Source: Acidobacteriota bacterium
GTDB lineage: Bacteria > Acidobacteriota > Thermoanaerobaculia > Multivoradales > JAGPDF01
Length of the DNA stretch: 64,000 nt
Direction of reading: 5' to 3'
NCBI GenBank assembly: GCA_045862895.1
Contig: BTUO01000005.1
Coordinates: forward strand, 207,980-271,979
The notes under the pieces were generated by a model that worked only from the letters and a program-made list of their open reading frames with translations, made no database searches and was not told the DNA's origin. The position numbers were made by a program, and so were the translations under genes. Shown here piece by piece: positions 11,995 to 45,119 of this stretch; position 1 is the first letter of the stretch, and each line of letters starts with the position of its first letter.

Positions 11995-13728
11995 TCAGGG
12001 GACGAGCCGCGGATTCCAGTACGAGGTCGAGCCGTTCTCGAAGCCGTCGCGGAACAGGACGGTGTCGGCGGCGCGCTTGACCAGGCGGACGAAGCGGACC
12101 TCGAGGTCGGCGGGGCCGGCGGCGATCAGGCGCAGGTCCGCGCCGTGCGGCAAGGAGCCGTTCCAGCGCGCGGCGTCGAGGCGGAAAGTGGCGGTCTTCC
12201 AGACGCCGTCGCCGGTGAGCGTCACCGCGTCGGAGAGCACCGTCCCGGAGGCCGCCGGATAGGCGACCCGCCAAGAGCCCGAACCGCTGTCCTTGAACGT
12301 CACCTTGAGGTCGACGAGAAAGCCGCGTCCCGGCGGCAGGAAGCGGTCGTCGGCGAAGAGCGCGAGACCGTCCTGCCCGGCGCCGCGGTTCGTCCGCCGC
12401 CCCTCCCAGGCCGTCCCGTTCGACGGATCGAGAACGTCCGTCGTGCTCTCGGTGCCGCGACGAGAGGCGCTGCCCGGGACATCGCGCTGCACCAGCCAGC
12501 GCTCGAGGTTCCTGATCCAGGGCTTTCCGGTCCAGTTCCGGCTGTCGTCGTCGAGCCAGTAGGTGTCCTCGGCCTCGCGCAGCGCCGCCCAGGCGTCGGC
12601 CGACGAGTAGGCGGTCTGGCCGAGAGAGTGGCGCACCCAGCTCCAGTGCACCGGATGCTGGTCGAGGTAGCTCGGACCCGGTACGACGTAGAGCCAGTTG
12701 AGCCGCATCTGGAGCACTTTCAGGTTCGACATCTTGATCGCGTAGTAGCGCTGAGCAGCCGGAACCGAGAAGCCGCAGTCGGTGTAGCACTCGTTCTCCG
12801 AGGCGCGCACGCGTCCGCGGAAGAAGGCGTCCCAGCTCTCGTCGGCGACGAGATACCCGTTCGAGTCGATCGTCGTGCCGTAAGCCGGGATCTCGGAAAG
12901 ATGGAAGTTGAAGACCTCGGTGATGCCGGTGCGGATCCCCGTGCCGGCGGCGACCGCGTCGCGCGCCAGCAGGTCGTCGGCCGCGCCCCACGAGGAGAAC
13001 GGGTAGTCCTCGCCGGTGAAGACCAGCTTCCAGGAGAAGTCGTCCGTCGGGTCGCCGTTCTCGCCGTCGGCGATCGCCACGAGGGTCGCCATCGCGGGAT
13101 GGAACCAGCCGGCGAACTGCGGGAACGTCAGATCGCCGTTCTGCGCCGCGATCTCGGGGATGTCGAAGTCGAACTCGCACCAGGTGAAGGCGCCGGGCAC
13201 GTACATCAGCCGCATCCGGGGGTCCGAGCGCAGCCCGCGGGTGATCAACACCTCGCGCAGCATCGCCGTCGCCTTCTGCCAGAGACAGGCGTTCCAGATC
13301 GGCAGGTGCGGGTCGTTCTCGTAGCCGACACCGACGGTCGAGACGCCGCACGCCGTGCGCGCCCACGCCGGCGCCCAGTCGGTGCCGGAGATCCAGATGC
13401 GCAGCCAGAACGGGTCGTTGCCGGCGAGCTGGGCATCCCAGGACGGGAAGAAGGTGCCGTAAACCGAGTCGGTGGCCGTGGTCGAGAACGTCGACTCGGT
13501 CGGCTTGAGCTGCCGCCAGGTCAGGTCGACCACGCGCAGGTTGACGTGGTGTGCCGGACTCGCGGACTCCGAGAAGAATCCCGAGTCGGGTGCCGGCTGG
13601 ACCCACGCGGGCAGCGACCAGTCGTCGCCGGCGACGACCGACACCAGCTCCCCCGCCGCGCCGGCGTTCCCCGGCGCCACTCCCGCGAGCACGACCAGCC
13701 AGCCCAGCAGCCTTTTCGCTTCCCGCAT
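11995..13728 (-). CDS. Secreted hypothetical protein (577 aa) ending in shared C-terminal motif VLFRDGFENGSTSYWNPRLVP
   Basis: Signal peptide (LVVLAGVAPGNAGAAGE); non-biased composition; C-terminal tag shared with three other secreted proteins in the window. Confidence 0.7.
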   Translation of the reverse strand: MREAKRLLGWLVVLAGVAPGNAGAAGELVSVVAGDDWSLPAWVQPAPDSGFFSESASPAHHVNLRVVDLTWRQLKPTESTFSTTATDSVYGTFFPSWDAQLAGNDPFWLRIWISGTDWAPAWARTACGVSTVGVGYENDPHLPIWNACLWQKATAMLREVLITRGLRSDPRMRLMYVPGAFTWCEFDFDIPEIAAQNGDLTFPQFAGWFHPAMATLVAIADGENGDPTDDFSWKLVFTGEDYPFSSWGAADDLLARDAVAAGTGIRTGITEVFNFHLSEIPAYGTTIDSNGYLVADESWDAFFRGRVRASENECYTDCGFSVPAAQRYYAIKMSNLKVLQMRLNWLYVVPGPSYLDQHPVHWSWVRHSLGQTAYSSADAWAALREAEDTYWLDDDSRNWTGKPWIRNLERWLVQRDVPGSASRRGTESTTDVLDPSNGTAWEGRRTNRGAGQDGLALFADDRFLPPGRGFLVDLKVTFKDSGSGSWRVAYPAASGTVLSDAVTLTGDGVWKTATFRLDAARWNGSLPHGADLRLIAAGPADLEVRFVRLVKRAADTVLFRDGFENGSTSYWNPRLVP

Positions 13729-13742
13729 GCGTCGGTCCCCGG

Positions 13743-17186
<3,444 letters not shown>

Positions 17187-17217
17187 GGCCAGTTTCCGGA
17201 GACCGGGTACTGGCAGT

Positions 17218-19143
17218 CTAGCGCGGCGCCTCGCGGCCGTCGGGCGCGATGTCGACCCGCCGACCCGTCTCGCGCAGCCGCTCCGCGAGCCACCTCGCCC
17301 GCCGGCACCCGGGGTCGTCCGCGAGCTTGCGCTCGAGCTCGCGCGCGACCCCTTCGCCGAACGCCGGATCGAGCGCGGCGCGGCCGAGCGTCGCTTCGAG
17401 GTCCTCCGGCTGCACGAAGCGGTAGGGCTCGCCGCTCCAGCCGCCGGCGCCACTGTGCAGGAAGAGCATCGACTCGTCGTCCCAGTCGACGAGCGCCCAG
17501 AGCTCGGGCGGGAACAGCAGCGCGTTGGCGGTCGACTCGCCGACCTGCCGGAAGCCGCCGGCCCCGTCGGGCTCGACCACCGGCACGCGGCGCGTCTCGT
17601 AGCGGACCAGCGCGCCGACCGCGCCACGCCCGGCGAGGAACGCCTCCCAGCGGACGGGGTCGCGGCGCGCAGCGGCGATCTGCCCGAGCAGCTCCGGCTC
17701 GAGCTCCATGCGGCCGTCGACGAACACCCGCCGCGGCGGAAACAGCCGCCAGAGCAGATAGCCGCCGTGAACGAACTCGTTGTAGAGCGGACCGACCTCG
17801 GGATGCGCCGCGAGCACGTTCGCCATCCGCTCGGGAAAACGCCCCGGTGCGACCCCCGTTCCCCAGGCGAGCCCGCCGTGACGCGCGCGCAGCGGCCCCG
17901 ACGACGGCGGCGCCGCGGCCCAGAGCGCGATCGCAGCCGCGGCAGCGATGGCGAGGATGGCCAGCGTCCGCTCGCGGCGAACCGACTCCGGCCGCGCGTC
18001 GGGAATCGCCGCCAGGCACCGCGCGGCCCAGGGCGTCGCGAGTGCGAAGAAGAGCGCCTGGTGGCGCACCCCCGAGAGCGCCAGCGCCGCCATCGCCGCC
18101 GCCGGCAGCCCCCACGCCGGCGCCGGCCAGCGCCCGGACGCCAGCCGCGCGGCCGCAGCCAGGGCCGCGACGATCGCGAAACCGCCGTAGAGGTAGGGCT
18201 GCGGCGCTTCGATCGACGACATCCACTCCGGATTGTGGGCGGAGAGCCCGCCGAGCGCCCGCGCGATCCCGACCGGCACCTCGATCAGTCGCCAGCCGTA
18301 GGGATTGACGAGCAGCGCCGCCGCCAGCAGCGCCGGGACCCCCACGAGCAGCGAGGCCGGGACTCTTCGCGAAGATGCCTCACGCCTCGCTTCGAGCGCG
18401 CGGCCGGCGAGAAACAGGAACGCCACCCCCGGCGCCAGCAGCGCCTGTCCGTGGCAGTTGACCCAGAGCACCACCAGCAGCACGAGACCGACGAGTTCGA
18501 CCCGCATCCCGCGGCGGTGCCGAGCCGTCCCTTCCCGCCATCCTCCGGTGGCCGCGTCGTCGACCACCGCTCCGAGCTCGCGACTCGCCTCCGGGGGCCT
18601 GCTCTTCGACAGCTCGTCTTTGGTCTCTGGTCGTGGAGTCTCTGCCCTCGTCGATCCTTCCCGCCGACTCGCGAGCCGATCGAGCAACAGCAGGAGCGTG
18701 AGCAACGCGAACAGCGTGACGATCTCCGGCCGGACGAGGAAGCGCGGCCGCACACCGAGCAGGCCGGCGAGCGCGAGCAGCCCCGCGAGCCCGGCGCCGA
18801 GCCCCGCCCGGCGGGCGTGGTGGAAGAGCAGCAGCGCGAAGCCGCCGAGCGCCGCGGCGCGCAGCGCGATCAGGCCGTCGAGGCCGGCGACCCGCTCGAC
18901 GCCGTGAACGACGACCTGGAACAGCCACTCGTGATCGACCCAGGCCGCGCCGCCGCTGGTGAACCGGAACGGGTCGACGCGCGGGATCGCGTCGTGCTCG
19001 AGCATCCAGCGCCCGGCCGCGAGGTGCCAGAACAGGTCGCTCTCGAAGATCGGGAAGACGCCGGCGACGACGCCCGCCAGCGCCACGGCCGCGGCGACCA
19101 GCAGGCCGCGGGGGACGACTCGGTGCCTCGTCTCCCCGCTCAT
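17218..19143 (-). CDS. GT-C-fold membrane glycosyltransferase-like protein (ArnT/PMT_2-like)
   Basis: First periplasmic loop FESDLFWHLAAGRWMLEHDAIPRVDPF...WVDHEWLFQ aligns with the ArnT/PMT acidic-loop pattern; at least 10 TM helices; low-complexity insert in the middle. Confidence 0.6.
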   Translation of the reverse strand: MSGETRHRVVPRGLLVAAAVALAGVVAGVFPIFESDLFWHLAAGRWMLEHDAIPRVDPFRFTSGGAAWVDHEWLFQVVVHGVERVAGLDGLIALRAAALGGFALLLFHHARRAGLGAGLAGLLALAGLLGVRPRFLVRPEIVTLFALLTLLLLLDRLASRREGSTRAETPRPETKDELSKSRPPEASRELGAVVDDAATGGWREGTARHRRGMRVELVGLVLLVVLWVNCHGQALLAPGVAFLFLAGRALEARREASSRRVPASLLVGVPALLAAALLVNPYGWRLIEVPVGIARALGGLSAHNPEWMSSIEAPQPYLYGGFAIVAALAAAARLASGRWPAPAWGLPAAAMAALALSGVRHQALFFALATPWAARCLAAIPDARPESVRRERTLAILAIAAAAAIALWAAAPPSSGPLRARHGGLAWGTGVAPGRFPERMANVLAAHPEVGPLYNEFVHGGYLLWRLFPPRRVFVDGRMELEPELLGQIAAARRDPVRWEAFLAGRGAVGALVRYETRRVPVVEPDGAGGFRQVGESTANALLFPPELWALVDWDDESMLFLHSGAGGWSGEPYRFVQPEDLEATLGRAALDPAFGEGVARELERKLADDPGCRRARWLAERLRETGRRVDIAPDGREAPR

Positions 19144-19159
19144 CGCGGCGGCTCCGGGA

Positions 19160-20230
19160 TCAGGAGTCGCCCAGCGCGCGCCGGACGTGAGAGATGTCGA
19201 GCAGGAACACGCCCTGCGAGGCGTGCTTCTCGGGCTCGAACTCGAGGTCGCGCACGACGCGCCGGAAAACCTCCTTGAGCGCGCGCGCTCCCAACCGCGG
19301 CTGCCGGGCGGCGGCGCGCGCGATGGTGCGCACGGCCTCGGGCGAGATGGCGAGCTGGACTCCGCGCGCCGCGAAGTAGGCGCGCGTCTGCTGGAAGCCG
19401 GAGTCGGGATTCTCGAGGAAGATCTTGACCAGCTCGTCGAGGCCGAGGTCCTCGAGCAGCACCACGGCGTCGAAGCGCGCCAGGAACTGCGGCGTCATGC
19501 CGTAGGCGAACAGGTCGTCGTTGCGCAGCCAGTCGGCCAGCCGGAAGACGAGGCGTTCGACCACCTTGCCGTCCTCGACCACGGTCACCGGCTGCAGCGT
19601 CCCCTTGTCCGCTCCGATGGTCACCCGGTCGAAGACCGCGTCGTAGAGCCCTTCGAAGGCGCCGCCGCAGACGAACAGCAGCCCGCGCGCGTCGAACGCC
19701 GCGGTGCCGCCGCCGAGCCACGCCGGCAGCTCGACCGGCACCACCTCGTTCTCCATCAGCGTCAGCAGGGCCTCCTGGGCGCGGATGCCGCGCACGTTGG
19801 GCTGGCCGCCGACGTGGGCGCGGATCTTGTCGACCTCGTCGACGAAGACCAGGCCCTTGCCCGCGCGCTCGAGGACCTGCTCGCGGGTGGCGCCGCCGCC
19901 GAGCTGCTCGCGCGAGCGCTCGAGCAGCCGCTTGAAGACCGCGGCGCCGGGGCGCCCCGCCTCGGCCTCTTCGCCGAGCACGTTGGCGTGGAGTCGCACC
20001 ACCGCCGACCGGCCCGCCAGGCGCGGGTCGGCGGCGAGCACGTCTTCGACCGCGCGCATCAGCGTGGTCTTGCCGGTGCCCGAGGAACCGATCATCAGGA
20101 TGTGGCCGACGGCGAGACCCGAGGCCTTCTTGGCCACCGCCACCGCCATCTCACGCACGGCGGTGTCCTGGCCGATGACGCGTTTGCCGAGGGCGCCGGC
20201 GATCTCCTGGGGCGACGGAGCGGAGCTCAT
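19160..20230 (-). CDS. ClpX/HslU-family AAA+ ATPase (ClpX-like, no zinc-finger, no GYVG pore loop)
   Basis: Walker A GSSGTGKT, Walker B LVFVDEVDK, sensor and arginine-finger region typical of ClpX/HslU clade; 356 aa. Confidence 0.8.
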   Translation of the reverse strand: MSSAPSPQEIAGALGKRVIGQDTAVREMAVAVAKKASGLAVGHILMIGSSGTGKTTLMRAVEDVLAADPRLAGRSAVVRLHANVLGEEAEAGRPGAAVFKRLLERSREQLGGGATREQVLERAGKGLVFVDEVDKIRAHVGGQPNVRGIRAQEALLTLMENEVVPVELPAWLGGGTAAFDARGLLFVCGGAFEGLYDAVFDRVTIGADKGTLQPVTVVEDGKVVERLVFRLADWLRNDDLFAYGMTPQFLARFDAVVLLEDLGLDELVKIFLENPDSGFQQTRAYFAARGVQLAISPEAVRTIARAAARQPRLGARALKEVFRRVVRDLEFEPEKHASQGVFLLDISHVRRALGDS

Positions 20231-20239
20231 CCCGACATC

Positions 20240-22141
20240 CTAAGGCAACGTGGCGGACCAGCGCGCCGCGTCGCCCCCCTCGAAGCAGTCGGCGAAGACC
20301 AGTTCGAGCGCGGCGTCGACCTCGAGCGCGTCCTCGAGCACGACGTGGTCCAGCCGGTAGTCGGCGGACGTGACGGCACCGTCGCCGTCGACGTCCAGCC
20401 AGAGCGCGAGCCAGACGTCCCAGAATCCCGCGACGGCGTCTCCCGGCAGATCGAACCCGCGCGTCTCGAGGTTGGCGCCGGGCACGAGCGGAGCCGCCGC
20501 GTCGTCGTCCGGATCGGAGACGAACTCGCCGTCGGGCGCCACCACGCTGGCGCCGAAGAGCACCGCCGGGTGGCCGAGCGCCGCGAGATCCGACGCTTCC
20601 GCGTGCAGCGCGATGCGCGCCGCCGGGCCGGCGATCCCGGGGCAGATCGAGCCCGCCACGACGTCGACCGGCGAGGCCAGGAACGCCGAGCGCTGGCCCG
20701 ACGGCGAGCCCGACGCGTTGTAGTAGTGATCGACGATCCAGCGCCAGGTCCGTTGCGGCGCCGGCGCGGGGTCGGACCAGCGCTTCGAGCCCCACTGCGA
20801 CATGCCGCGGCCGTGGCCGAAGCAGCCGTGCCCGGCCGCGACCGCGTCCGCGAGGCAGGGCCAGCCGAACGCGGGCGAGCCGACCGCGCCGTCGCCGCAC
20901 GAGAGGTCCGAGTTCGAGCAGGCGAGCCCGTCGTTGGGATCGTCCCAGCCGTTGTTCTCGGCCGAGTACTCGGCCTGGAACGCCGCGCCCTGGCGCTCGA
21001 GCAGGATCCCCGCGGTCGCCGCCACCGCGGCGTCGGTGCGCGCCGCGGTGTCGGGGTCGTTGACCTGGCAGCAGGCGCTGCTGCACAGGTCGAAGCTCGG
21101 GCGGATCGGGTGGTCGACGCGGTAGGAGGCGTAGCTGCGGTAGGCGATGGCACCGGCGGCGAGCGAGTCGTCGTCCCAAGAGGAGATCCACTCGTCGTTC
21201 AGGCCCCGCGCGACGTAAGTCTCGAGCGGCAGGACGCAGACCGCCGTGCACGAAGCGGTGCAGCAGATCGTCGAGCAGCCGGCGTCGGCGAAGCCGACGC
21301 GCACCGAGACGGGCGGCGCCAGCACCGTGCCGAGCGGCGAACGCCGCGGGTCCCAACCCGACTCCTCGCCGGTCGTCGCGCCGAGCGCCGCGCCGCCCGA
21401 CGCGGCGTGGACCCGGTGCGCGTCGCGGACGACCTCGGTCCCGGCACCCGGGGTGAGGCTCCACAGATGGAAAAGTCGATCCTCGACCGCGAGGACCCCT
21501 TCGAGCCGCCGGCTCCGCCGCCCTTCGGCCGAGACCTCGAGCGCGACGGGACGGAGCTCGGAGAGCTCGGCGCTCCGCGGGTCGGAGGACGGCAGGAGCA
21601 GTTCGTAGCGCCCGTCGGCGTCGGTCCAGGCGATCGTGCCGTCGTCGGCTCGAACCCGTGCCGCCGCGATCGGATCGCCGCTCTCGACGGCCACGACCCG
21701 TCCGGCGAGTCGGCTGGTGCCGCCGTCCCCGGCGATCGTCGCGTCCGTGCGCGCCCCCACCGCCTCCAGCGGATCGAGCTCGAAGACCCAGGTCGCCGGA
21801 GCCTCCGGCGCGGCGATCAGGCGGGCCGTCAGCGGCCGATGCCCCGGCGCGGAGGCGGTCGCCTGCCAGGCGCCGGGCGCGATCGAGACCACTGCCCGGC
21901 CCGACTCCGACAACGCGACGTGGAGCTCCCTTGCCGGAGATCCTTCGGCGCCACCGAAACGGACGTCGGCCGCCAGGGGCTTCGCCGAGTCCGCCGCCCG
22001 CACCAGGACCTCGATCGCGACCGGAGCTCCGGCAGGCGCCGTCGGCAGGCGCCGAGCCCAGGAGACTTCCGCGCCCGCGAGCAGCCCCGCTCCCACGGCG
22101 GCCGCCGCGGCCACCGCCCGCCCCGAGCTTCCGAAGATCAT
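20240..22141 (-). CDS. Secreted SpoIID/LytB-domain protein with CarboxypepD_reg-like N-terminal region, ending in shared C-terminal motif LVFADCFEGGDAARWSATLP
   Basis: HGCFGHGRGMSQWGSKRWS matches the SpoIID/LytB amidase-enhancer core; signal peptide; shared C-terminal tag. Confidence 0.75.
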   Translation of the reverse strand: MIFGSSGRAVAAAAAVGAGLLAGAEVSWARRLPTAPAGAPVAIEVLVRAADSAKPLAADVRFGGAEGSPARELHVALSESGRAVVSIAPGAWQATASAPGHRPLTARLIAAPEAPATWVFELDPLEAVGARTDATIAGDGGTSRLAGRVVAVESGDPIAAARVRADDGTIAWTDADGRYELLLPSSDPRSAELSELRPVALEVSAEGRRSRRLEGVLAVEDRLFHLWSLTPGAGTEVVRDAHRVHAASGGAALGATTGEESGWDPRRSPLGTVLAPPVSVRVGFADAGCSTICCTASCTAVCVLPLETYVARGLNDEWISSWDDDSLAAGAIAYRSYASYRVDHPIRPSFDLCSSACCQVNDPDTAARTDAAVAATAGILLERQGAAFQAEYSAENNGWDDPNDGLACSNSDLSCGDGAVGSPAFGWPCLADAVAAGHGCFGHGRGMSQWGSKRWSDPAPAPQRTWRWIVDHYYNASGSPSGQRSAFLASPVDVVAGSICPGIAGPAARIALHAEASDLAALGHPAVLFGASVVAPDGEFVSDPDDDAAAPLVPGANLETRGFDLPGDAVAGFWDVWLALWLDVDGDGAVTSADYRLDHVVLEDALEVDAALELVFADCFEGGDAARWSATLP

Positions 22142-22233
22142 CTTCCTTTCATTCTATGGACGTCTTCGCCGTTCCGTCTCGGGCCGCGAACCAGCTCCTC
22201 GCGACCTCCGCCCGGCTCCGGTAGATTCCCGCC

Positions 22234-23256: not shown

Positions 23257-23335
23257 CGGTCGGGAACCCCGCTTCGTCTCCGAAGCACCGCGACATCCGT
23301 CGACGCGCATCCGTCGATCCGCACGGAGGGAACTG

Positions 23336-25492
23336 ATGAGCCGATCACTCGCGCTCCGCCTCGCCCTGATCTGGATCGGGGCGAGGCTCCTCGACCCGTC
23401 CGCCGTCGCGCAGCCGATCGACACCGGGTGGGTCTGGACGACTCCCGGATACGAAATCGGGGCGGCAGGCATCGCCGTCTCCGATTTCGACGGTGACGGA
23501 CGCGACGATCTTCACCTCGCGTCCCGTGGCGGGTCGTACTACGGGTCCCAGTACGCCTACTGGCACGAATGGCAACCGGACGGACCGGTGGTCCGGCAGG
23601 AGTGGAGCTCGCTCTTCCTCGAGGACGGAATTCAGAAGCTCGTCGCCACCCGGTCGCCGGAAGATCGGTTCATCGCCGTCTCGGGCACCGAGCTCCTCGT
23701 CTTCCACGGCATCGACCACGACCTCGAACGAACCATCGTCACCGACTACTCGGCGATCGCGGATCTGGTCGTCGACGATCTCGACGGCGACGGCGACCTC
23801 GAGCTGGCCCTCTGCGACGAGGAGAACTTCTACGTCCGGTCGTTCTCGACCGGACTCGAATCGGGGCGTCGGTACGGTTTCGGCTGTTCGCAGATTCTGT
23901 CCGGCCAGTTCGACGCCGACCCGGCGAATGAGCTCGTGTTGGTCGGGAATCTCGCCGGAGGATTCGTCCTGGATGGCGCGACCCTCGCGATTCAGTGGGT
24001 GGAGCTCGACGGCTTCGGCGACCGTGCGACAGTCGCGGATGTCGACTCCGACGGAGACGACGAGATCATCCATTACCGGGAAGACGACGACGACCTCGTC
24101 GCCGTGGAGCCGGGATTGCCGGCGGCCTACTGGGAGATCGAGGGCTGCAATCCGTCCTACCTCGACGCGATGGACGTCGACGGCGATGGCGACGCCGAGG
24201 TCGTGGCTTACGACGGGGGCGTGTTCGGAGGACTGGCCGCGATCGATTCGGCCACCGGCGTTCCGGTCTGGAGCCTCCAGCTCGGAGCCGAACCCCGATC
24301 GGTTGCGGTCGGTGATTTCTACGGCGACGACGAGCACGAGCTCGCGGTCGCCGGCGCGGACAGCTCCTACGGAGGGAGCAACGACATTCTCGTGTTCGAC
24401 CTCTCCACGCTCCTGCTCCAGTCGCGTACGCCGCTGCTCGGGTCGCAGCTCGCGACCTTCGTGGTCGGCGATCTGGACGGCGACTCCTCTCCCGATCTCG
24501 TGACGGCCTTCGGAAGCGACAGTTACGGCTACGGAGGGGACCGCATCGCGTATTTCGACATCTCGGATCGTCGACTCGAGTGGATCGAACCGACGGCCAC
24601 GGCGACGGAGTTTCTCGCGCTCGGGCAAGCCGACGCGGATCCCCAACCGGAGATCTGCCGGACGAGCTCCGAGTACTACAGCGAGCGGTCCCTCCGATGC
24701 GAGGACTCTCTCACTCACGCCGTCGAGTGGGGAATCGACTTCCAGGGCGAGGACAGCCCGGGACGGGTCACGTTCCTCGACCTGGACGGATCGTCACCGT
24801 CGGAAGTCGCGGTATCGACCGCGAACGAGCTCGTTTACGTGTTCGAAGGGCCTTCCGGCTGGTTGCGGTGGGCGAGCCCGGCGCTCGCCTCCACCACCAC
24901 GGCGCTCCGTGTCGCGGAGGTCGACGGCGACGGCCAGCCCGAGCTGCTGGCCGGCGGCGGCGACTACTACTACGGAGGAAACCTCGCCGTCATCGACCCG
25001 GCGACCGGCGCGCTCCTCGCCGGTCCGCACGAGATCGATCTCGCCGCGTTCGACGCGGCTCAAATCGACGTCGATCCCGAAATGGACGTGCTCGGTGGAT
25101 TCGGGTCCTTCGGAGCTTCCCAGCTGGCCGAGGTCGACCCCTGGACCGGCGCGATCCAGCCGGCGATCGCGACGTTCGACGACCCGATCCGGGCGATCCG
25201 GATCGCGGAGATGACCGGCGACGCCCAGGTCGATTTCGTCGTGCTCAGCGGACCGAAGGCGTTCGTGATCGACGGCTCCACGACGAACATCGTCTGGGAG
25301 AGCCCGCACCTCGGACCGGAAGCGGAGGGGTCCAGGGATCTCGAGCTCGCCGACCTCGGCGGCTCCGATCGCCCGGAGATCATCGTCAACCTCGGCGTCG
25401 GTTTCGCCGTCTTCGGAGTCGTCGACCTGATCCTGTTCGACGACGGCTTCGAGTCCGGCGACACCTCCGCGTGGTCCTCGACCTCCCCCTGA
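23336..25492 (+). CDS. Secreted FG-GAP/VCBS-repeat beta-propeller protein ending in shared C-terminal motif LILFDDGFESGDTSAWSSTSP
   Basis: Repeated FDGDGRDD / DLDGDGDLE / DVDSDGDDE / DVDGDGDAE / DLDGDSSPD FG-GAP calcium-loop motifs; signal peptide; GGAGGG RBS. Confidence 0.8.
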   Translation: MSRSLALRLALIWIGARLLDPSAVAQPIDTGWVWTTPGYEIGAAGIAVSDFDGDGRDDLHLASRGGSYYGSQYAYWHEWQPDGPVVRQEWSSLFLEDGIQKLVATRSPEDRFIAVSGTELLVFHGIDHDLERTIVTDYSAIADLVVDDLDGDGDLELALCDEENFYVRSFSTGLESGRRYGFGCSQILSGQFDADPANELVLVGNLAGGFVLDGATLAIQWVELDGFGDRATVADVDSDGDDEIIHYREDDDDLVAVEPGLPAAYWEIEGCNPSYLDAMDVDGDGDAEVVAYDGGVFGGLAAIDSATGVPVWSLQLGAEPRSVAVGDFYGDDEHELAVAGADSSYGGSNDILVFDLSTLLLQSRTPLLGSQLATFVVGDLDGDSSPDLVTAFGSDSYGYGGDRIAYFDISDRRLEWIEPTATATEFLALGQADADPQPEICRTSSEYYSERSLRCEDSLTHAVEWGIDFQGEDSPGRVTFLDLDGSSPSEVAVSTANELVYVFEGPSGWLRWASPALASTTTALRVAEVDGDGQPELLAGGGDYYYGGNLAVIDPATGALLAGPHEIDLAAFDAAQIDVDPEMDVLGGFGSFGASQLAEVDPWTGAIQPAIATFDDPIRAIRIAEMTGDAQVDFVVLSGPKAFVIDGSTTNIVWESPHLGPEAEGSRDLELADLGGSDRPEIIVNLGVGFAVFGVVDLILFDDGFESGDTSAWSSTSP

Positions 25493-25505
25493 CCCGCCCG
25501 CGGCG

Positions 25506-26384: not shown

Positions 26385-26402
26385 CGCGGGCGCCTCACCG
26401 GC

Positions 26403-27479: not shown

Positions 27480-28060
27480 CGCGGCCTCCCCACCGGCGGC
27501 CGCTGCGTGTAGCGGCCGGGGCGGCCGGGGACGTAGAACTTCGTGACGTCGCCCTGGCGCGCGAACCTGTAGACGCGCTGCGGCCGCTTGCCGTCGAGCC
27601 CCTTCGCCGCGTCGCCCGGGTAGCGCCAGAGCTCGAGCGGCGGCTCGCCGTAGAGATCGCTGGGCTCGAACTCGATCTTCTCCGGTTCGCCGTAGAGCAC
27701 GTAGATCGTGCCGCGGTCGGAGGCGCGGCCGGCGCGCCCCGCCTCGGCGAAGCGCTGGTCGGCCTCGGCGGCGCGGCGCTCGGCGGCCTCGCGCACCGGA
27801 TTGCTCGGGCGTTGCGGGTCGGGATCGCGCACTCCCCAGAAGCGCTCGACGAAGGCGAGCGCCGCTTCGTCGTCGACCAGCGCCGTGAACTCGCGCACCT
27901 CGGCGTCCGTCGCCAGCCGACCGGGCGCGCCCAGCAGCCAGCCGGCGAGCTCCGGCGAGAGCAGCGGATTGAGCAGGTCGACCGCCTCGCGCTCCGCCGC
28001 CGCCAGCGGGGCGGCGACGCCGAGGGCCAGCGCCAGGACGAGCGCGCGGCGGCAGGTCAA
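27476..28060 (-). CDS. Secreted GWxTD-domain-like protein (degenerate motif)
   Basis: FW..RDPDP ... DRGTIYVLYGEPEKIEFEP ... ELWRY matches GWxTD-family layout; TTG start at 28060 with GGAGG 9 nt upstream gives signal peptide; the long upstream extension to 28396 is R/P-rich. Confidence 0.5.
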   Translation of the reverse strand: MTCRRALVLALALGVAAPLAAAEREAVDLLNPLLSPELAGWLLGAPGRLATDAEVREFTALVDDEAALAFVERFWGVRDPDPQRPSNPVREAAERRAAEADQRFAEAGRAGRASDRGTIYVLYGEPEKIEFEPSDLYGEPPLELWRYPGDAAKGLDGKRPQRVYRFARQGDVTKFYVPGRPGRYTQRPPVGRPR

Positions 28061-28668
28061 GACTCGGGCCTCCGCAACAGATCGAGGAACTCCTCGCGCA
28101 CCGGGCGCTGGTGGAAGATGCCGCGGATCGAGGAGGTCACCGTCACCGCCCCCGGCTTCTTGACGCCGCGCATCTCGACGCACAGGTGGCGCGCCTCGAT
28201 CACCACCATCACCCCCTGCGGTGCGAGCTTGCTCTCGAGGTAGTCGGCGACCTGCTCGGTCAGCCGCTCCTGGAGCTGCGGCCGCTTGGCGTAGAACTCG
28301 AGGATGCGGGCGAACTTCGACAGCCCCAGGATCGAGTCGTTGGGAATGTAGGCGAGGTGGGCGTGGCCGTAGAACGGCACCAGGTGGTGGGCGCACATCG
28401 AGTAGAACGGGATGCGCTTCTCCATCACCATCGCGCTGTAGCGCTCCTCGTTGGGGAAGACCGTGATCGCCGGCTCGGCCCCCTCCTGGAGGCCGTGGAA
28501 CATCTCGGCGTACATCTTGGCCACCCGCCGGTCGGTCTCGGCGAGGTTGGGGTCCGCGAGGTCGAGTCCGAGCTCGGTCAGGATGCCGCGGACGTGGCCG
28601 GCGATCCGCTCCAGCCGCTCCGGCTCGAGCAGATCCAGGGCGTTCGGGGAAGTGCTCGTCGGGCTCAT
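28057..28668 (-). CDS. folE: GTP cyclohydrolase I
   Basis: Strong FolE homology (FYSMCAHHLVPFYGHAHLAYIP, LQERLT); ATG at 28668; alternative ATG at 28707 has a better SD (AAGGGGTGGAG) but would overlap the divergent methyltransferase start. Confidence 0.85.
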   Translation of the reverse strand: MSPTSTSPNALDLLEPERLERIAGHVRGILTELGLDLADPNLAETDRRVAKMYAEMFHGLQEGAEPAITVFPNEERYSAMVMEKRIPFYSMCAHHLVPFYGHAHLAYIPNDSILGLSKFARILEFYAKRPQLQERLTEQVADYLESKLAPQGVMVVIEARHLCVEMRGVKKPGAVTVTSSIRGIFHQRPVREEFLDLLRRPES

Positions 28669-28694
28669 CGAATCGATCCTAGCCCACCTTAGAA

Positions 28695-29902
28695 TGGCCG
28701 CCGACATGCTCCACCCCTTCGACCCGGGGCCGCGACCGCGCATCCCCGAAGATCTGCTGGGCGAGATTCCGGAATCGCTCTTCGACGACCGCATCTACGC
28801 TGCCTGCGAGCTCGCCGAGCGTTACGCCACCGATCTCGCGCTCGCGATCGCGCGCCGCCTCGGCCTCGTCGAGCCGCTCGCCGCGGGCGGCACCGCCGCC
28901 ACGCTCGCCGCCGGGCGGGGTTTCGATCCGGCGTTCGAACCCGCAATCGAGGCGCTGCTCGAGCGCCTGGCCGCCGCCGGCGAGCTGGTGCGCGCGGACG
29001 GCGCGAGCGGCCCGGTCTACCGCCGCGACGGTCCAGCGCGAGAGCCCGAGCTCGCCGCGCTGCGCGCGATCGGCATGGCGATCGATCCGCGCATCGTCGC
29101 CACACTCGACCTGCTCGACGCCGCGGCGGCGGCCTGGCCGGCGGTGGCCTCGGGGCGGACCACCGGCGAGAAGGAGCTGTTCTCCGCCGGCTCGATCGCG
29201 CTCTGGCTCGCCTACTTCTCCAACGACAACCCGGTCTACGCGCTCAACAACCTGCTGACCGCGGTGGTGGCGGCGAACCGGCTGCCCGACCGGGAGGGAC
29301 TCTCGGTGCTCGAGGTCGGGGCCGGCGCCGGCGGTTTCACCGCGACCCTGCTCGACGAGCTCGCCCGGCGCGGGCGCCTCGGCCAGGTCGCGCGCTACAA
29401 GCCCACCGAGCCGTCGCCGTTCTTCCGACGGCGCGGCGAGCGCGAGCTCAAGGCCCGCTTCCCGCAGGTGCCGCTCACCTTCCGCGCCCTCGACGTCGAC
29501 CAGCCGTTCGTCGCGCAAGGGCTCTCCGCCGAGCTCCGCGATCTCGTCGTGGGCGTCAACGTCCTGCACGTCGCGCGCGACCTCGGCGCCGCGTTGGCGC
29601 GGATCCGGGAGACCCTCGCCCCGGGCGGCTGGCTGGTCGCGGGTGAGTGCCTGCGCCTCTTCCCGCGCCAGCCGGTGCCGGCCGACCTGGTCTTCCAGCT
29701 CTTCCGCAGCTTCACCGACGTCGGCACCGACCCCGTGCTGCGACCGCACCACGGCTTCCTCGAGCCGTCGGCGTGGCGCACCGCGCTCGAGGCCGCGGGC
29801 TTCGTCGAGGTCGCCGTGGTGCCCGACCTGGAGCGGATCCGCGCGATCTACCCGCGCTTCTTCGCCGGCGTCGTCGTCGGCCGCCGGCCGGTCGTGGGAT
29901 GA
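28695..29902 (+). CDS. Class I SAM-dependent methyltransferase
   Basis: LEVGAGAGGFT glycine-rich SAM motif, methyltransferase fold; start at MAADMLHPF (upstream 80 codons are S/R-rich). Confidence 0.7.
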
Positions 29903-29922
29903 TCGGCGCCGGAGGGGACGCC

Positions 29923-30168
29923 ATGCCGCCCGAGATCACCATCGAGTACTGCGTCGTTTGAAACTACCTGCCCCGGGCCGCCGGTCTGGCGGTCGCGATC
30001 GAGGCGGAGCTGGGATGGAAGCCGGTCTTGATCAAAGGTTCGGGCGGCGTCTTCGAGGTTCGCGCCGATGGCGAACGGGTCTTCTCGAAGAAGCAGGTCG
30101 GCCGCTTCCCGAACCCCGGCGAAGTGATCGAGGCGCTGCGCGCCCGGGCCTCGCCGCCGGCCGGCTGA
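29923..30168 (+). CDS. selW: SelW/Rdx-family selenoprotein (SelW-like), in-frame TGA at 29959..29961 read as selenocysteine
   Basis: MPPEITIEYCVV-U-NYLPRAAGLAVAIEAELGWKPVLIKGSGGVFEVRADGERVFSKKQVGRFPNPGEVIEALRARASPPAG: the CxxU redox motif and the G.FEV..G..VFSKK..GRFP core align with SelW; GGAGGGGA RBS 5 nt upstream; bSECIS-like hairpin 15 nt after TGA. Confidence 0.7.
29976..29994 (+). ncRNA. bSECIS-like stem-loop (7-bp stem ggCCGCC/GGCGGtc, apical loop GGUCU) downstream of the SelW UGA
   Basis: Hairpin begins 15 nt after UGA, apex 22-26 nt from UGA, G and U in apical loop as in bacterial SECIS elements. Confidence 0.5.
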
Positions 30169-30178
30169 GCCCGAATCG

Positions 30179-31306
30179 ATGACGGCGCTGGCGCTGGCCA
30201 CCGCGCTCGCCGCCCTCGCCGTCGCCCTGCGCGCGGCCCTGCCGCGCCTGCGAGCGCCGCGCCTGGCCGCGCCCGAAGACCCCAGCGAATCGACCGCGGT
30301 CGACGTTCTGTTGCCGGTCCGCGACGAGGAGTCGAACGTCGCCGACTGCGTCGCGGCGCTCCTCGCTCAACGGGTCCCGGTGCGCGTCCTCGTGCTCGAC
30401 GACGGCTCCCGCGATGCCACCGCCGCGATCACTGGCGCGCTCGCCGCCGCCGAGCCGCGCGTCGCCTTCGAGCGCGTCCCCGAGCCCCCGTCCGGTGCCA
30501 GCGGCAAGGTCGCGGCGCTCGCCCACGGCGAGCGGCGGACGGCCGGCGACTGGCTGCTGGCGGTCGACGCCGACGCCCGGCCCGCACCGGACGCGCTCGC
30601 GTGCGCCCTCGCCACCGCCCGCGCGCGCTCTCTCGATGCCCTCTCGCTCGCCGCGCGCCAGCGCGCGCCGCGCCCGGGCGAGGCGCTGCTGACACCGCTG
30701 GTCTTCGCCCTGCTCGACGTCGCTCTCGGCGACTGGCGCCGCGCCGCCGACGGCCGCGGCGCGCCGGTGGCCAACGGCCAGTTCCTGTTGGTGCGTCGCG
30801 CCGCGCTCGCTGCGGTCGGCGGCTACGGCGCGATCGCGACCGAACCGCTCGACGACGTCGCGCTCGCCCGCCGCCTGGCGGCGGGCGGATTCCGGGTCGG
30901 CTTCCTGCGCGCCCGCACGGCGCTCGCGGTGCGGATGTACCGCGGCGCCGGGGCGACTTTCCACGGCTGGCGCCGGAACCTGGCGCTGATCTTCGGCGCG
31001 CGCCCCGGCGCGCCGCTCGCCGCCGCCGCCCTGCTCGCCGCCCCCGGTGTCGCGGCGGTCGCGGCGCTCGCCGCCGGCCGCCCCGGGACGGCGCTCGCGG
31101 CCTGGGCGGCGGGCGCGCTGGCTTCCGCCGTCGCCCGCGCGGGCACCGGCAGCTCGCCGCTGTGGGGAGTGCTCCACCCGCTCGACGCCCTCGCTCTGAC
31201 CGGCACGCTGGCGGTCGCCGCCCGGGACCATCGCCGCGGCCGGCTGGCCCGCTGGCGCGGGCGCGACCTGTCGCCCGGCGCCGGGCCCCCGTCCCGGCGC
31301 GCCTAA
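30179..31306 (+). CDS. Family 2 glycosyltransferase (membrane-associated)
   Basis: GT2 DxD region (VLVLDDGSRD ... LAVDADA) and C-terminal TM segments. Confidence 0.7.
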   Translation: MTALALATALAALAVALRAALPRLRAPRLAAPEDPSESTAVDVLLPVRDEESNVADCVAALLAQRVPVRVLVLDDGSRDATAAITGALAAAEPRVAFERVPEPPSGASGKVAALAHGERRTAGDWLLAVDADARPAPDALACALATARARSLDALSLAARQRAPRPGEALLTPLVFALLDVALGDWRRAADGRGAPVANGQFLLVRRAALAAVGGYGAIATEPLDDVALARRLAAGGFRVGFLRARTALAVRMYRGAGATFHGWRRNLALIFGARPGAPLAAAALLAAPGVAAVAALAAGRPGTALAAWAAGALASAVARAGTGSSPLWGVLHPLDALALTGTLAVAARDHRRGRLARWRGRDLSPGAGPPSRRA

Positions 31307-31365
31307 ACCATCGTTCAATTGATCCCCCCGCGCCTCGAGGGCAAGCTCTCCCACGGACGTTCCCC

Positions 31366-31433
31366 GGGAGGGCACGGGGGGCCGGCCTCGAATCCCGCGA
31401 GGCGACGCTGACCGTGCCCTCCCCCCTTTTTCT
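31366..31433 (+). terminator. Putative intrinsic terminator (12-bp stem gggagggcacgg/ccgtgccctccc with structured loop, then CCCTTTTTCTC)
   Basis: Inverted repeat followed by T-tract between GT2 gene and LVIVD gene. Confidence 0.4.
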
Positions 31434-31445
31434 CGGAGGACACGG

Positions 31446-33422
31446 ATGCTCGGACTTCGCATGCTCCCGGCCACCGGCCTGCCCGCCCGCACCGCCGGCT
31501 GGACGCTCGCCCTCGCACTCCTCGCCACCGTCCCCGTCGCGGCCGACCCGACCGTGATCGACCAGGCGGGGGGTGAGCCGGGCGACCTCGTGGTCGCCGG
31601 CGACCTGGCCTACGTCGCCCACGGCCCCGCCGTCGCGGTCTGGCAGCTCGACCCGAACGGCACCGCCGCGCCGGCGCTGGTCTCGACCGCCGCGCCGCTG
31701 CCCGGCCTGGTCAAGGGCGTCGCGGTCGCGGGGGAGTACCTCTTCGCCTCCTGGCGCACCGACTGGCCGAACGGCAAGCTCGCGGTCTATTCGCTCGCCG
31801 ACCCGCTCGTGCCGGCGCACCTGTTCGACTTCACCTACTCGGTCTCCGACTTCCTGTCGCCGGGCGGCCTGCTGCTGATCGGCGACCAGCTCCTGCTCGC
31901 CGACGCCGAGGCGGGCCTGGTGTCGATCGACGTCAGCGATCCGACGGCTCCCGTGGTCGACGCCACGCTCTCGGGTTCGATCGGCATCCAGCGGCTGGCG
32001 CGCGTCGGCGCCGACGGCGTGGTCGCCTGGGGCCGCAGCTTCCTCGGCATGATGTTCCTCGAGACCTTCGACGCCACCGACCCGGCGGCGCCGGCGAGCG
32101 TCGGCTTCTACTCGGGCGCCAACTACTTCGACGCCGCCGTGTTCGGCACCAAGGCGATCCTGGTGGGATTCGGCATGGAGGTCATCGACCTCGCCGATCT
32201 CGCCAACCCGTCCTTCCTGGGAGGCGACGGCAACGTCGTCGGCCGTACCGCGCTCTGGCGCGGGCGCTACGCCTACATCGGCGACGAGAACGGCATCCAC
32301 GTCTGGGACCTGCTCGATCCGGCCAGCCCGGTCGCCGGAGCGGTCGTCCCGGCGCCGGCCGATCGCCACGTGCGCAACGCCCTCCACGCCGCCGCCGACG
32401 GTCCCGAGGCGCTGATGCTGACCGACACCGGCAGGGCGCTGCTCGTCGACCTGTCGACGCCGTCGCTGCCGGAGCTCGAGCACGCCGTCGACCTGCCGGT
32501 CGGGACCGACTCCACCGCCGTCCTCGAGGCGGGCGGGCTGCTCTTCGTGGCCGACTTCTATTCGGGACTGCGCATCGCCGATCCCGGTTTCGCCAGCGTC
32601 GGCCGCTCCGATCCCGGCATCTTCCAGGGCGCCTACGAGGACGTCGACGTCCAGTCGGGCGTCGGCTACCTGGCGAGCTGGGGCTACGGTCTGCTGATCT
32701 ACGACCTCACCGACCCGTCCCAGCCGGCGCCGCTCGGCGACGTCGAGCTCGGCGCCGCCTCGGCGGTCGACGTGGAGGGCGACTGGGCCTACCTGGTCAA
32801 GTCGTCCGGAGGGGGGCTGTTCGCGGTCGCCGACGTGTCGGACCCGACGCAGCCCGTGATCGTCCAGTCCCTCCCCCTTTCGAAGGGGCTCGACGTCCTC
32901 TACCATCAGGGCCTCGCCCTGGTCGCGGACGAGCAGGTCTTCGACATCGGCGGACTTCGGATCTTCGATGTCACGGACCCCGCGTCGCCCGCCGAGATCG
33001 CCCACTACGACACCTGCCCGTCGGCCGGCGGCGTCGCGGCGAACGGTACGCTGGCCGCCGTGGCCTGCCACGACGGCTCCCTGCACGTGGTCGACCTCAC
33101 GGTGCCCACCCTGCCGGTCCAGCTCGGCGTCTGGAGCGATCCCGAGCGCTTGCTCACCGGCCACCGCGTCGCTTTCGACGGCCACCGCGTCTGGTTCGCC
33201 CACTCCGACGGCGTCGACCTCGTCGACGTCTCGGATCCCGCGGCGCCGCGGCGCCTGGCGCTCGCCGATCTCGCCAACTCGGCGCGCGGCATCGATCTCG
33301 CCGCCGACGGCTCGGCCTGGATCGCGACCGGCGTCGGCGGGGTCTACCGCGTCAACCTGGTGGTCTTCGAGGACGGCTTCGAGAGCGGCGGTACCCGTGC
33401 CTGGTCGGCCGCCCAGCCGTAG
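31446..33422 (+). CDS. Secreted LVIVD-repeat beta-propeller protein ending in shared C-terminal motif LVVFEDGFESGGTRAWSAAQP
   Basis: Recurrent AYVAHG / GLVSIDVSDPTAP / LLIYDLTDPSQP / LRIFDVTDPASP / LHVVDLTVPTLP / VDLVDVSDPAAP LVIVD repeats; signal peptide; GGAGG RBS. Confidence 0.8.
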   Translation: MLGLRMLPATGLPARTAGWTLALALLATVPVAADPTVIDQAGGEPGDLVVAGDLAYVAHGPAVAVWQLDPNGTAAPALVSTAAPLPGLVKGVAVAGEYLFASWRTDWPNGKLAVYSLADPLVPAHLFDFTYSVSDFLSPGGLLLIGDQLLLADAEAGLVSIDVSDPTAPVVDATLSGSIGIQRLARVGADGVVAWGRSFLGMMFLETFDATDPAAPASVGFYSGANYFDAAVFGTKAILVGFGMEVIDLADLANPSFLGGDGNVVGRTALWRGRYAYIGDENGIHVWDLLDPASPVAGAVVPAPADRHVRNALHAAADGPEALMLTDTGRALLVDLSTPSLPELEHAVDLPVGTDSTAVLEAGGLLFVADFYSGLRIADPGFASVGRSDPGIFQGAYEDVDVQSGVGYLASWGYGLLIYDLTDPSQPAPLGDVELGAASAVDVEGDWAYLVKSSGGGLFAVADVSDPTQPVIVQSLPLSKGLDVLYHQGLALVADEQVFDIGGLRIFDVTDPASPAEIAHYDTCPSAGGVAANGTLAAVACHDGSLHVVDLTVPTLPVQLGVWSDPERLLTGHRVAFDGHRVWFAHSDGVDLVDVSDPAAPRRLALADLANSARGIDLAADGSAWIATGVGGVYRVNLVVFEDGFESGGTRAWSAAQP

Positions 33423-42593: not shown

Positions 42594-42619
42594 GGTCGGT
42601 CTCCTTTCGGGGCTCCCCA

Positions 42620-42637
42620 CCAGCAGGAACGATGCCG
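42620..42637 (-). promoter_or_regulatory. Possible sigma-54 promoter (cGGCATcgttccTGCT) about 40 nt upstream of lipoprotein gene
   Basis: GG and GC dinucleotides at correct -24/-12 spacing; one mismatch in each element. Confidence 0.25.
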
Positions 42638-42713
42638 TTTCTCCCACGAAGCCCGCCGGCGCCGCGGCGGCCCGGTCCGCTGGCGCCCTGTGGCCCGCTC
42701 CACCCGACCCCGC

Positions 42714-43913: not shown

Positions 43914-43916
43914 GGC

Positions 43917-45115: not shown

Positions 45116-45119
<4 letters not shown>
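43917..45119 (-). CDS. ABC transporter permease, MacB/FtsX family (paralogue)
   Basis: Same architecture as neighbouring permease. Confidence 0.85.

Follow-up and report, generated by a model that had tools for sequence, protein, structure and literature searches.

A proline-ended C-terminal tail recurs on unrelated exported proteins of Thermoanaerobaculia and is a candidate targeting or retention tag

The DNA analysed here, called the window below, is a 64,000-nucleotide stretch of contig BTUO01000005.1 (assembly GCA_045862895.1, positions 207,980 to 271,979) from an Acidobacteriota bacterium of the lineage Thermoanaerobaculia, with a base composition of 73% G+C. Four open reading frames (ORFs) of the window, each coding for an exported protein, close with [LIV]-F-x-D-[GC]-F-E-x-G-x4-W-x3-4-P-stop, as read from the translation of the four stretches, and this short C-terminal tail is the subject of the present analysis. 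The genes were taken from ORFs, Pfam matches and gene calls on public contigs, while a gene caller based on GC3 (the G+C content of third codon positions), which is unreliable at 73% GC, was set aside. The four cargo proteins and their tails are given below, with the E-values obtained with a profile hidden Markov model (HMM) of the tail.

11995..13728, minus strand: cargo 1, a 577-amino-acid (aa) exported protein of an uncharacterised family; no Pfam or NCBIfam match
11998..12066, minus strand, stop codon at 11995-11997: tail 1, ADTVLFRDGFENGSTSYWNPRLVP (= DTVLFRDGFENGSTSYWNPRLVP); HMM E=7.1e-6
20240..22141, minus strand: cargo 2, a 633-aa exported protein with a SpoIID/LytB domain and CarboxypepD_reg; PF08486, PF13620, TIGR02669
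20243..20311, minus strand, stop codon at 20240-20242: tail 2, AALELVFADCFEGGDAARWSATLP (= ALELVFADCFEGGDAARWSATLP); HMM E=5.5e-8
23336..25492, plus strand: cargo 3, a 718-aa exported propeller of FG-GAP repeats; Pfam PF13517/PF01839
25421..25489, plus strand, stop codon at 25490-25492: tail 3, VDLILFDDGFESGDTSAWSSTSP; HMM E=2.5e-13
31446..33422, plus strand: cargo 4, a 658-aa exported beta-propeller of LVIVD repeats; PF08309, TIGR04312
33351..33419, plus strand, stop codon at 33420-33422: tail 4, VNLVVFEDGFESGGTRAWSAAQP; HMM E=2.9e-10

The translations gave the same tails that had been quoted in the first-pass annotation, with the stop codon directly after each of them. The same four were recovered independently by the HMM, which was built from 108 tails of other organisms and contained no window sequences; in the six-frame translation of the window it had only four matches, each at the extreme C-terminus of a long ORF, and the next E-value was 0.5. 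A loose regular expression applied to the six frames returned the four tails and one unrelated internal match. The tails are 20-24 residues long and consist of a hydrophobic strand of 3-4 residues followed by acidic and polar residues, with the stop codon 11-12 residues past the motif Gly. The ORFs do not continue downstream, where the next genes are on the opposite strand or unrelated. Tail 3, VDLILFDDGFESGDTSAWSSTSP, is the nearest of the four to the lineage consensus, while in tail 1, DTVLFRDGFENGSTSYWNPRLVP, one additional residue separates W from the terminal P, and tail 2, ALELVFADCFEGGDAARWSATLP, is the most divergent, with DC in place of DG. The further properties that the first-pass annotation had ascribed to the proteins were borne out as well: all four have Sec-like N-termini, as judged by reading the sequence, none of the four tails contains a transmembrane (TM) helix or a basic cluster, and the domain contents are unrelated, SpoIID with CarboxypepD_reg, FG-GAP and LVIVD being confirmed by Pfam and the 577-aa protein having no Pfam match. 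The LVIVD propeller is weakly related to the choice-of-anchor B family (TIGR04312).

The similarity of the tails could in principle reflect a repeat at the DNA level, or an artefact of assembly or annotation, encoding similar peptides. The only point in favor of this explanation is the repetition itself. The three tails that align without gaps are identical at 0.48-0.57 of their third codon positions, compared with 0.65-0.83 of their second positions; the tails have different stop codons, and identity is 33-35% over the 60 downstream bases. The lowest identity at third positions, together with the differing stop codons and the lack of downstream similarity, indicates that conservation acts on the peptide. 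Moreover, the tail genes of the window are also present in independent public assemblies, including a contig of the Logan collection (L001) with the same gene call for the SpoIID/LytB protein and independent Logan assemblies with an identical FG-GAP propeller, and orthologues of 40-85% identity retain the tail. Given the codon-position pattern, the independent assemblies and the conservation in orthologues, a DNA repeat or artefact was excluded as an explanation.

To describe the spread of the tail, a 30-position profile was compared with 1.84 billion cluster representatives (50% identity) at E <= 0.001, and 4,735 representatives matched. In about 100 of the best 150 of these 4,735, the Asp of DGFE lies at a distance of exactly 16 residues from the C-terminus. 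The tail has the consensus [LVI]-F-[ASE]-D-G-F-E-S-G-D-T-S-A-W-S-x-T-V-P-COOH (hFxDGFESGDTSAWSxTVP), with invariant or almost invariant F, D, G, F, E, G, W and S. Among the 108 tails of the HMM, F(-18) is present in 104, the D, G, F and E as well as G(-11) and W(-6) in all 108, and Pro is the last residue in 106. A word-index protein search with the tail profile returned 10 short fragments, in which the motif was confirmed. When one genome per GTDB species was scanned for sequences encoding DGFESGDTSAW[ST], at least 119 loci were obtained. Of the 119 listed, 101 carry the label Acidobacteriota, in most cases with Thermoanaerobaculia or one of its orders and in some with 'Holophagae', while 10 belong to other phyla and 8 are unclassified. 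Hence, among the listed loci of species-representative genomes the tail is nearly confined to Thermoanaerobaculia.

The position of the tail is as constrained as its sequence. Among the strict matches listed, 88/131 finish at xxxP-stop, 16 residues after the Asp, and of the 157 HMM matches in the 119 loci, 92 end at the C-terminus and 129 lie at most 4 residues from it; Pro is final in 88 of the 106 HMM matches that reach within one residue of the stop. Several copies are often found together, with two or more tails inside 8 kb in 30/119 loci, four tails in the 64 kb of the window, and at least 11 strict matches in a single metagenome-assembled genome (MAG), MFD09964.bin.1.228. Hence, the recurrence proposed from four proteins extends to thousands of representatives. 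Some carriers have unusual arrangements of the motif. Tandem pairs of tails, 20-40 residues apart with no intervening domain, were observed outside the window in small proteins or fragments (P0014, P0016, P0026, P0028, P0029, P0032, P0036, P0045 and P0151), and in P0074 a full tail, including ...ATVP, stands right behind the signal peptide.

The proteins that carry the tail outside the window have little else in common. Of the 90 carrier ORFs that are complete, 63 have a signal-peptide-like N-terminus according to a crude test of hydropathy, the count being lowered by start-codon errors, and a lipobox was rare. When 59 carriers were aligned, the mean column identity was 8% and the invariant columns were located solely in the tail. 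These 59 carriers match 37 Pfam families, among them LVIVD, subtilases (S8), BNR, FG-GAP, beta-helix, InhA-MAM, M14 and M28, and further GDSL lipase, GH114, trypsin, FGE-sulfatase and cytochromes. The commonest NCBIfam matches are choice-of-anchor Q/B/J, myxosortase- and rhombosortase-dependent M36, rhombotarget A and LPXTG-anchored peptidase. Choice-of-anchor-type families are defined by NCBI through members bearing differing C-terminal sorting signals. These data agree with the earlier description of the tail as a transferable module on otherwise unrelated signal-peptide proteins, and this C-terminal module is real, abundant and enriched in one lineage.

To learn what occupies the place of the tail in related proteins, about 240 homologues of the LVIVD and 577-aa families were inspected. 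All Thermoanaerobaculia-like LVIVD orthologues finish with ...GVYxx, 3-4 residues and F-x-D-G-F-E-x-G-x4-W-x4. The homologues from Kofleriaceae and many others end right behind the last propeller strand (...GVYQWQL), those from Luteimonas have a PPC domain (PF04151) in the tail slot, and many others, including one from Candidatus Eisenbacteria, have there a FlgD-Ig/Por_Secre_tail domain (PF13860/PF18962) of the type IX secretion system (T9SS) type, while another group has a short ending, ...IFADGF[DE] with 0-6 further residues. A similar variety was found in the 577-aa family. Its Thermoanaerobaculia members carry the tail, and the FWNPRLVP variant of the window is kept in the orthologues P0277-P0288. 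The homologues of Actinomadura, Leifsonia and two of the three dictyostelids end at the strand ...VRFVRLVK or a few residues past it; the third dictyostelid, Tieghemostelium, has a hydrophobic ending resembling a glycosylphosphatidylinositol (GPI) signal, a Schekmanbacteria homologue has a tail with a TM segment and Arg, and one of Planctomycetes is annotated as dockerin-containing. In Thiolapillus the proteins end with ...[IV]F-x-D-G-F-E and 0-4 residues, of which Pro is often the last. Such replacement of the tail by known sorting modules is the classic signature of a sorting tag.

The conservation of the tail was compared with that of the folded part of the proteins. In LVIVD orthologues whose bodies are 39-56% identical to that of the window protein, the identity of the tail is 45-75%. 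In AlphaFold2 (AF2) models based on homologue alignments, the predicted local distance difference test score (pLDDT) of the tail was 41-49 in the LVIVD and 577-aa proteins, while their bodies scored above 90; the block-mean pLDDT was about 46-48 for residues 641-658 of the LVIVD protein, and the values were 41-49 for residues 555-577 of the 577-aa protein. The models thus suggest that the tail is unpacked on its own cargo, and a conservation equal to or above that of the LVIVD body is unusual for a segment that is not predicted to pack.

The 577-aa protein belongs to a large and well conserved family without a Pfam or NCBIfam model. Its AF2 model (mean pLDDT 93) consists of a glycoside-hydrolase-like TIM barrel and a jelly-roll resembling a carbohydrate-binding module (CBM), followed by the tail, and the Foldseek matches were weak, to the GH156 exosialidase and to CBM4/6/22. 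The 420 homologues include, as the nearest named relatives, proteins of Thermoanaerobaculia MAGs (84% identity), and, at 45-51% identity, proteins of Actinomadura, Leifsonia, Thiolapillus and the dictyostelids Heterostelium, Acytostelium and Tieghemostelium. The models and this distribution suggest an uncharacterised glycoside hydrolase family with transfer from bacteria to amoebae. Two other kinds of short endings were also seen among the homologues. The first is a minimal form, h-F-x-D-G-F-[DE] with 0-6 further residues and often Pro-ended, which occurs in other lineages in both the LVIVD (P0175-P0213) and the 577-aa family (P0320-P0358). One of its carriers, P0323 (locus L124, 10001-11794), is encoded by Thiolapillus brandeum, a cultured gammaproteobacterium with a complete genome, which could serve as a tractable model for the tag; no additional tail genes were found near this locus in the gene list, which was the only source consulted there, the HMM scan not having been made. 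The second, approximately [FY]-x-[DNS]-W-P-x3-4-[SN]-[IV]-L-x-[FL]-[IV]-x3-8, was found in the 577-aa homologues P0321, P0322, P0324, P0330 and P0333, one of which is from an Acidobacteria MAG. It stands in the place of the DGFE tail, after ...VRFVRL[IV]K, and may be a second undescribed C-terminal tag.

The profile search also returned a second class of matches, which points to the origin of the motif. In these proteins the core F-x-D-G-F-E-S-G-[DST]-x-S-x-W is internal and recurs every ~190-440 residues in large proteins of other phyla, and it was also seen just behind a signal peptide or as tandem mini-repeats. The strict-pattern matches from Acidimicrobiia, Chloroflexi and Planctomycetota (three) are of this internal kind. 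In ten proteins with internal motifs, the Pfam alignments to Polysacc_lyase (PF14099) and CBM_4_9 (PF02018) place the motif at positions 1-4 of the profile. As judged from these sequence alignments, the tail core F-x-D-G-F-E-x-G-x4-W is homologous to strand beta1, perhaps to the beta1-beta2 hairpin, of the CBM_4_9/Polysacc_lyase jelly-roll, and the tail would be a beta1 segment cut about 12 residues on and capped by Pro. It shares with these domains a core that includes their N-terminal strand motif (NG/DG-F-E-x-G-x-x-x-W), but lacks the remaining 130-200 residues of the domain, and it adds to the strand the conserved D-T-S-A, S and T-V-P-COOH and a fixed distance to the stop. The recycling of a structural element of the CBM fold, its first strand, as a linear motif would be an unusual example. 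Hence, the claim that the tail is a module and not a domain remnant holds in its first part, while the second part is too strong in view of this homology.

The same homology raises the question of whether the tail could be an evolutionary stub, that is, the leftover first strand of a lost jelly-roll, or a generic linker or strand motif kept for local structure with no shared recognition. The existence of tandem and internal copies would agree with such an origin, as would the CBM-like jelly-roll that immediately precedes the tail in the 577-aa protein. However, none of the roughly 240 inspected homologues of the LVIVD and 577-aa families has a domain past the tail, and these homologues thus do not show it to be the start of a truncated annotated domain, the outcome which the first-pass annotation had named as decisive against its proposal. 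The stub explanation also does not fit the presence of the tail, with fixed length and terminal Pro, behind unrelated folds such as propellers, SpoIID and proteases, its conservation in orthologues as good as or better than that of the folded bodies, its unpacked state in the models, or the concentration of thousands of independent carriers in one lineage. We therefore consider a stub improbable.

A different role for the strand would be docking by strand complementation, which would give the tag hypothesis a defined mechanism. The tail would be the donor beta1(-beta2) of a split CBM_4_9-like jelly-roll, and the acceptor, a surface scaffold, an outer-membrane protein or another enzyme, would lack this strand, so that exoenzymes would be assembled or tethered non-covalently. 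What makes this possibility appealing is that the tail has retained the residues conserved in the copies that start repeated domains (the PF14099/PF02018 positions 1-4), and these residues, F, D, G, F, E, G and W, are expected to face the core or form turns, and would be odd in a free peptide. It would also agree with the unpacked state of the tail on its own cargo in the AF2 models, and with the terminal Pro, which is common even among the short variants. On the other hand, the variants hFxDGFE-COOH keep a single strand, the motif was found in no solved structure in PDB sequence searches, and a phmmer search of the six-frame translated window and 119 loci (~0.95 Mb), for which 64 jelly-roll bodies without the motif served as queries, gave no matching body that could be an acceptor lacking its first strand. 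The idea was reached by analogy, and we regard docking of this kind as unlikely.

The genes around the tail genes were analysed for a possible partner. The array from 22141 down to 8082 contains, in addition to the genes of cargo 1 and 2, a radical-SAM + DUF4070 enzyme, two Ser/Thr kinases, a sigma factor of the extracytoplasmic function (ECF) type, an AAA+ ATPase and a polytopic membrane protein, and a glycosyltransferase-like (GT-C) gene lies elsewhere in the window:

797-2782: a second large ORF, directly upstream of the TMEM260-like gene
2784-4619, plus strand: TMEM260-like (PF11028) GT-C membrane protein with C-terminal TPR
8082-10306 and 13743-17627, minus strand: ECF-type sigma factor, then Ser/Thr kinase (Pkinase + DUF4384); also a 1,294-aa kinase-TPR protein
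17218-19143, minus strand: 641-aa polytopic membrane protein with at least 7 hydrophobic segments, N-terminal ...FESDLFWHLAAGRW...; no Pfam match
19160-20230, minus strand: 356-aa ClpX/ClpB-like AAA+ ATPase (ClpB_D2-small match)

The genes of the 641-aa membrane protein and the AAA+ ATPase are adjacent, and they come directly after the tail-bearing SpoIID gene in its downstream direction. The AAA+, radical-SAM and kinase assignments made earlier for these neighbors were confirmed, while the proposed GT-C identity of the 641-aa protein has no Pfam support. In another part of the window, two adjacent MacB-type permeases (MacB_PCD + FtsX) lie beside a small CarboxypepD_reg protein (41811-45119, minus strand; public-contig gene calls). 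When the ORFs of the 119 loci and the window were clustered all against all, the only neighbor families that recurred were Ser/Thr-kinase(TPR), in 10 loci, and ECF-sigma, in 6 loci, which by a rough estimate is about what their abundance predicts. The pairing of sigma factor and kinase in 6/119 loci probably reflects the known expansion of such pairs in this lineage. Because the GT-C, ClpX-like AAA+ and radical-SAM genes do not recur beside tail genes in the 119 loci, the link between the tag and these neighbors, which had been suggested from the window, is not supported.

These gene neighborhoods also bear on two other explanations of the tail. One of them is that it serves not for targeting but as a modification site, with O-glycosylation of the conserved Thr/Ser by the abundant GT-C/TMEM260-like enzymes, or as a stabilising cap resistant to proteases. 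Within eight positions of the consensus, four hydroxyl residues are conserved (T-9, S-8, S-5, T-3), a TMEM260-like GT-C+TPR protein is encoded in the window at 2784-4619, and a terminal Pro, which resists carboxypeptidases, would suit a cap. However, no GT-C family is enriched beside the tail genes of the 119 loci, Ser/Thr are not among the invariant residues (F, D, G, F, E, G and W), and the hydroxyl positions are lost in the window tails DAARWSATLP and GGTRAWSAAQP and absent from the short variants consisting of hFxDGFE only. Modification or capping is thus unlikely as the role of the tail. The other explanation is that the tail is a C-terminal degron, through which a tail-specific or PDZ protease of the periplasm would exert quality control, or a propeptide removed in maturation. 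The strict position relative to the free C-terminus and the flexible, exposed state of the tail in the AF2 models could be understood in this way, and the place of the tail is taken in homologues by PPC domains, which undergo cleavage after secretion. But proteases of the Prc/Tsp or DegS type prefer non-polar or aromatic C-termini, and an acidic peptide ending in Pro would not be a typical target for them; the neighborhoods of the 119 loci show no enrichment of a protease gene, and it is difficult to see why hundreds of hydrolases should carry a constitutive degron. A degron or propeptide was consequently judged highly improbable.

The explanation that we favor, with a probability of about 0.5, is that the tail is a targeting or retention tag without a TM segment, recognised by a factor specific to the lineage once Sec export has taken place. 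The tag would be a self-contained element of about 20 residues, composed of a hydrophobic strand whose last residue is Phe, an Asp-Gly-Phe-Glu turn or strand, Gly, four residues, Trp, and 3-4 residues to Pro-COOH, whose sequence would be derived from jelly-roll beta1, perhaps the beta1-beta2 hairpin, with the conserved strand residues retained. It would have been added to the C-termini of many unrelated Sec-exported proteins of Thermoanaerobaculia, outside the fold of the cargo. After export across the inner membrane it would most likely be read by a shared, lineage-specific factor that sets the final location, the protein either passing through the outer membrane or being retained there or at the cell surface. 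The tag would thus fill, without a membrane span, the role which the C-terminal domains (CTDs) of T9SS, PPC domains and PEP-CTERM/GlyGly-CTERM have on homologous cargo elsewhere. In all comparative respects that are open to testing when whole genomes are not at hand, the tail behaves like a sorting signal. From a modular and selected element in the slot of an anchor we infer a sorting signal, and likewise its targeting or retention role, the destination of the cargo and the recognising factor.

Several observations weigh against a targeting or retention tag. The two features that define all characterised small C-terminal sorting signals, a TM helix and an Arg cluster (bioRxiv 10.1101/2023.06.07.544157), are both lacking: the 20-24 residues of the tail are acidic and polar, and its ending x-T-V-P contains no Arg/Lys cluster. 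About 5% of the matches from the same lineage are internal or N-terminal (e.g. L113, L115 and P0074), and therefore a free C-terminus is not invariably present. The window tails themselves diverge from the consensus, with HMM scores of 20-44 bits. Some cargo families (SpoIID, di-haem peroxidase/MauG-like proteins and cytochromes) are typically periplasmic, which leaves room for a destination inside the outer membrane. A low pLDDT is no proof that a short tail is free in vivo. The clustering of neighborhoods from the 119 loci and the window gave no candidate for a sorting enzyme, receptor or translocon, and the phmmer search gave none for an acceptor jelly-roll. Finally, we know of no precedent for the reading of a sorting tag without a TM helix and an Arg cluster.

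A more far-reaching proposal is that the tail is the signal of a new anchor-free sorting or secretion pathway of diderm Acidobacteria, read by strand complementation at an acceptor on the outer membrane or surface, which we put forward as a tentative and rather doubtful idea. In such a pathway the short hFxDGFE...P-COOH tails of some Gammaproteobacteria (e.g. Thiolapillus) would be a minimal version of the signal. The proposal bears on the choice between surface and medium for the exported proteins of diderms beyond the well-studied phyla, and Thermoanaerobaculia are abundant, uncultured bacteria of sediment and soil. If the tail is indeed a tag, then an acidic element of 20 residues without a TM segment, present on thousands of hydrolases, propellers and adhesin-like proteins, would imply a different recognition principle and missing machinery. 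The tail HMM provides a sharp handle for a census of carriers, phylogenetic profiling and prediction of the exoproteome, and the tag, if portable, could be used as a short tag for protein display.

The tail was compared with catalogued domains and signals. No model in Pfam (2025 copy) or in NCBIfam release 20, including the CTERM models, covers the tail in the four proteins, in the tails alone at E<=10 or in the 59 carriers, in agreement with the earlier view that it falls outside the known CTERM sorting classes. Searches of the PDB sequences, for which an internal-domain protein and the tail profile served as queries, yielded no meaningful match to the motif, and neither an account of the tail motif nor of a relevant Thermoanaerobaculia secretion system was found in the searchable literature. 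The tail is thus undescribed in Pfam, NCBIfam, PDB sequences and the searchable literature. Eight attributes of small C-terminal sorting signals have been published (Haft, bioRxiv 10.1101/2023.06.07.544157), and six of them (1, 2, 3, 6, 7 and 8) were found for the tail. These are the C-terminal location (4/4 window tails at the stop, 88/131 strict and 92/157 HMM matches), multiple copies per genome (4 in the window, at least 11 in one MAG), invariant signature residues (D, G, F, E, G and W in 108/108), carriers with a signal peptide (attribute 6; 4/4 in the window by inspection, 63/90 by the crude test), carriers that are otherwise unrelated (attribute 7; 59 carriers with 8% column identity and 37 Pfam families), and homologues without the signal or with another one (attribute 8), seen in the LVIVD and 577-aa families. 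The absent ones are attributes 4, the TM helix, and 5, the terminal basic cluster.

Two signals were considered and rejected as counterparts of the tail. Substrates of the type I secretion C-terminal signal have no Sec signal peptide, yet the carriers of the tail do; and the beta-signal of outer-membrane proteins requires an aromatic C-terminus on a beta-barrel, while the tail has a terminal Pro in 88/106 matches and its cargo consists of soluble enzymes and propellers. With LPXTG/sortase, PEP-CTERM/exosortase, GlyGly-CTERM/rhombosortase and MYXO-CTERM/myxosortase, the tail has in common the extreme C-terminal site, the several copies per genome and the invariant motif, as well as unrelated carriers with signal peptides and an overlapping cargo (choice-of-anchor proteins, M36 and subtilases). 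It differs from them in having no TM segment and no Arg cluster and in being acidic and Pro-ended. Because of the missing TM segment and Arg cluster, an intramembrane or membrane-anchored transpeptidase could not read the tail in the usual way, and we know of no cognate enzyme for it. Strand-donor tags, such as the donor strands of chaperone-usher and type V pili and SpyTag from split CnaB2, are short terminal strands of a beta-sandwich that can complete the fold of a partner. The tail would resemble them in idea only, as no acceptor is known for it and no isopeptide chemistry is implied. The PPC domain (PF04151), like the tail, is a C-terminal addition to secreted proteins, and it occupies the place of the tail on the LVIVD homologues of Luteimonas, but it is folded and several times longer and has no sequence relationship to the tail. 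The T9SS CTD (PF18962 / PF13860) is a folded beta-sandwich, several-fold longer than a tail of about 20 residues which is predicted to be unstructured alone; models of the PF18962/TIGR04183 type matched neither the whole proteins nor the tails alone (E<=10), consistent with the initial remark that the tail is far shorter than such a domain. At the same time, the T9SS CTD and the tail occupy the same slot on LVIVD homologues, both are devoid of a TM segment, and both are carried by a similar repertoire of secreted hydrolases and propellers.

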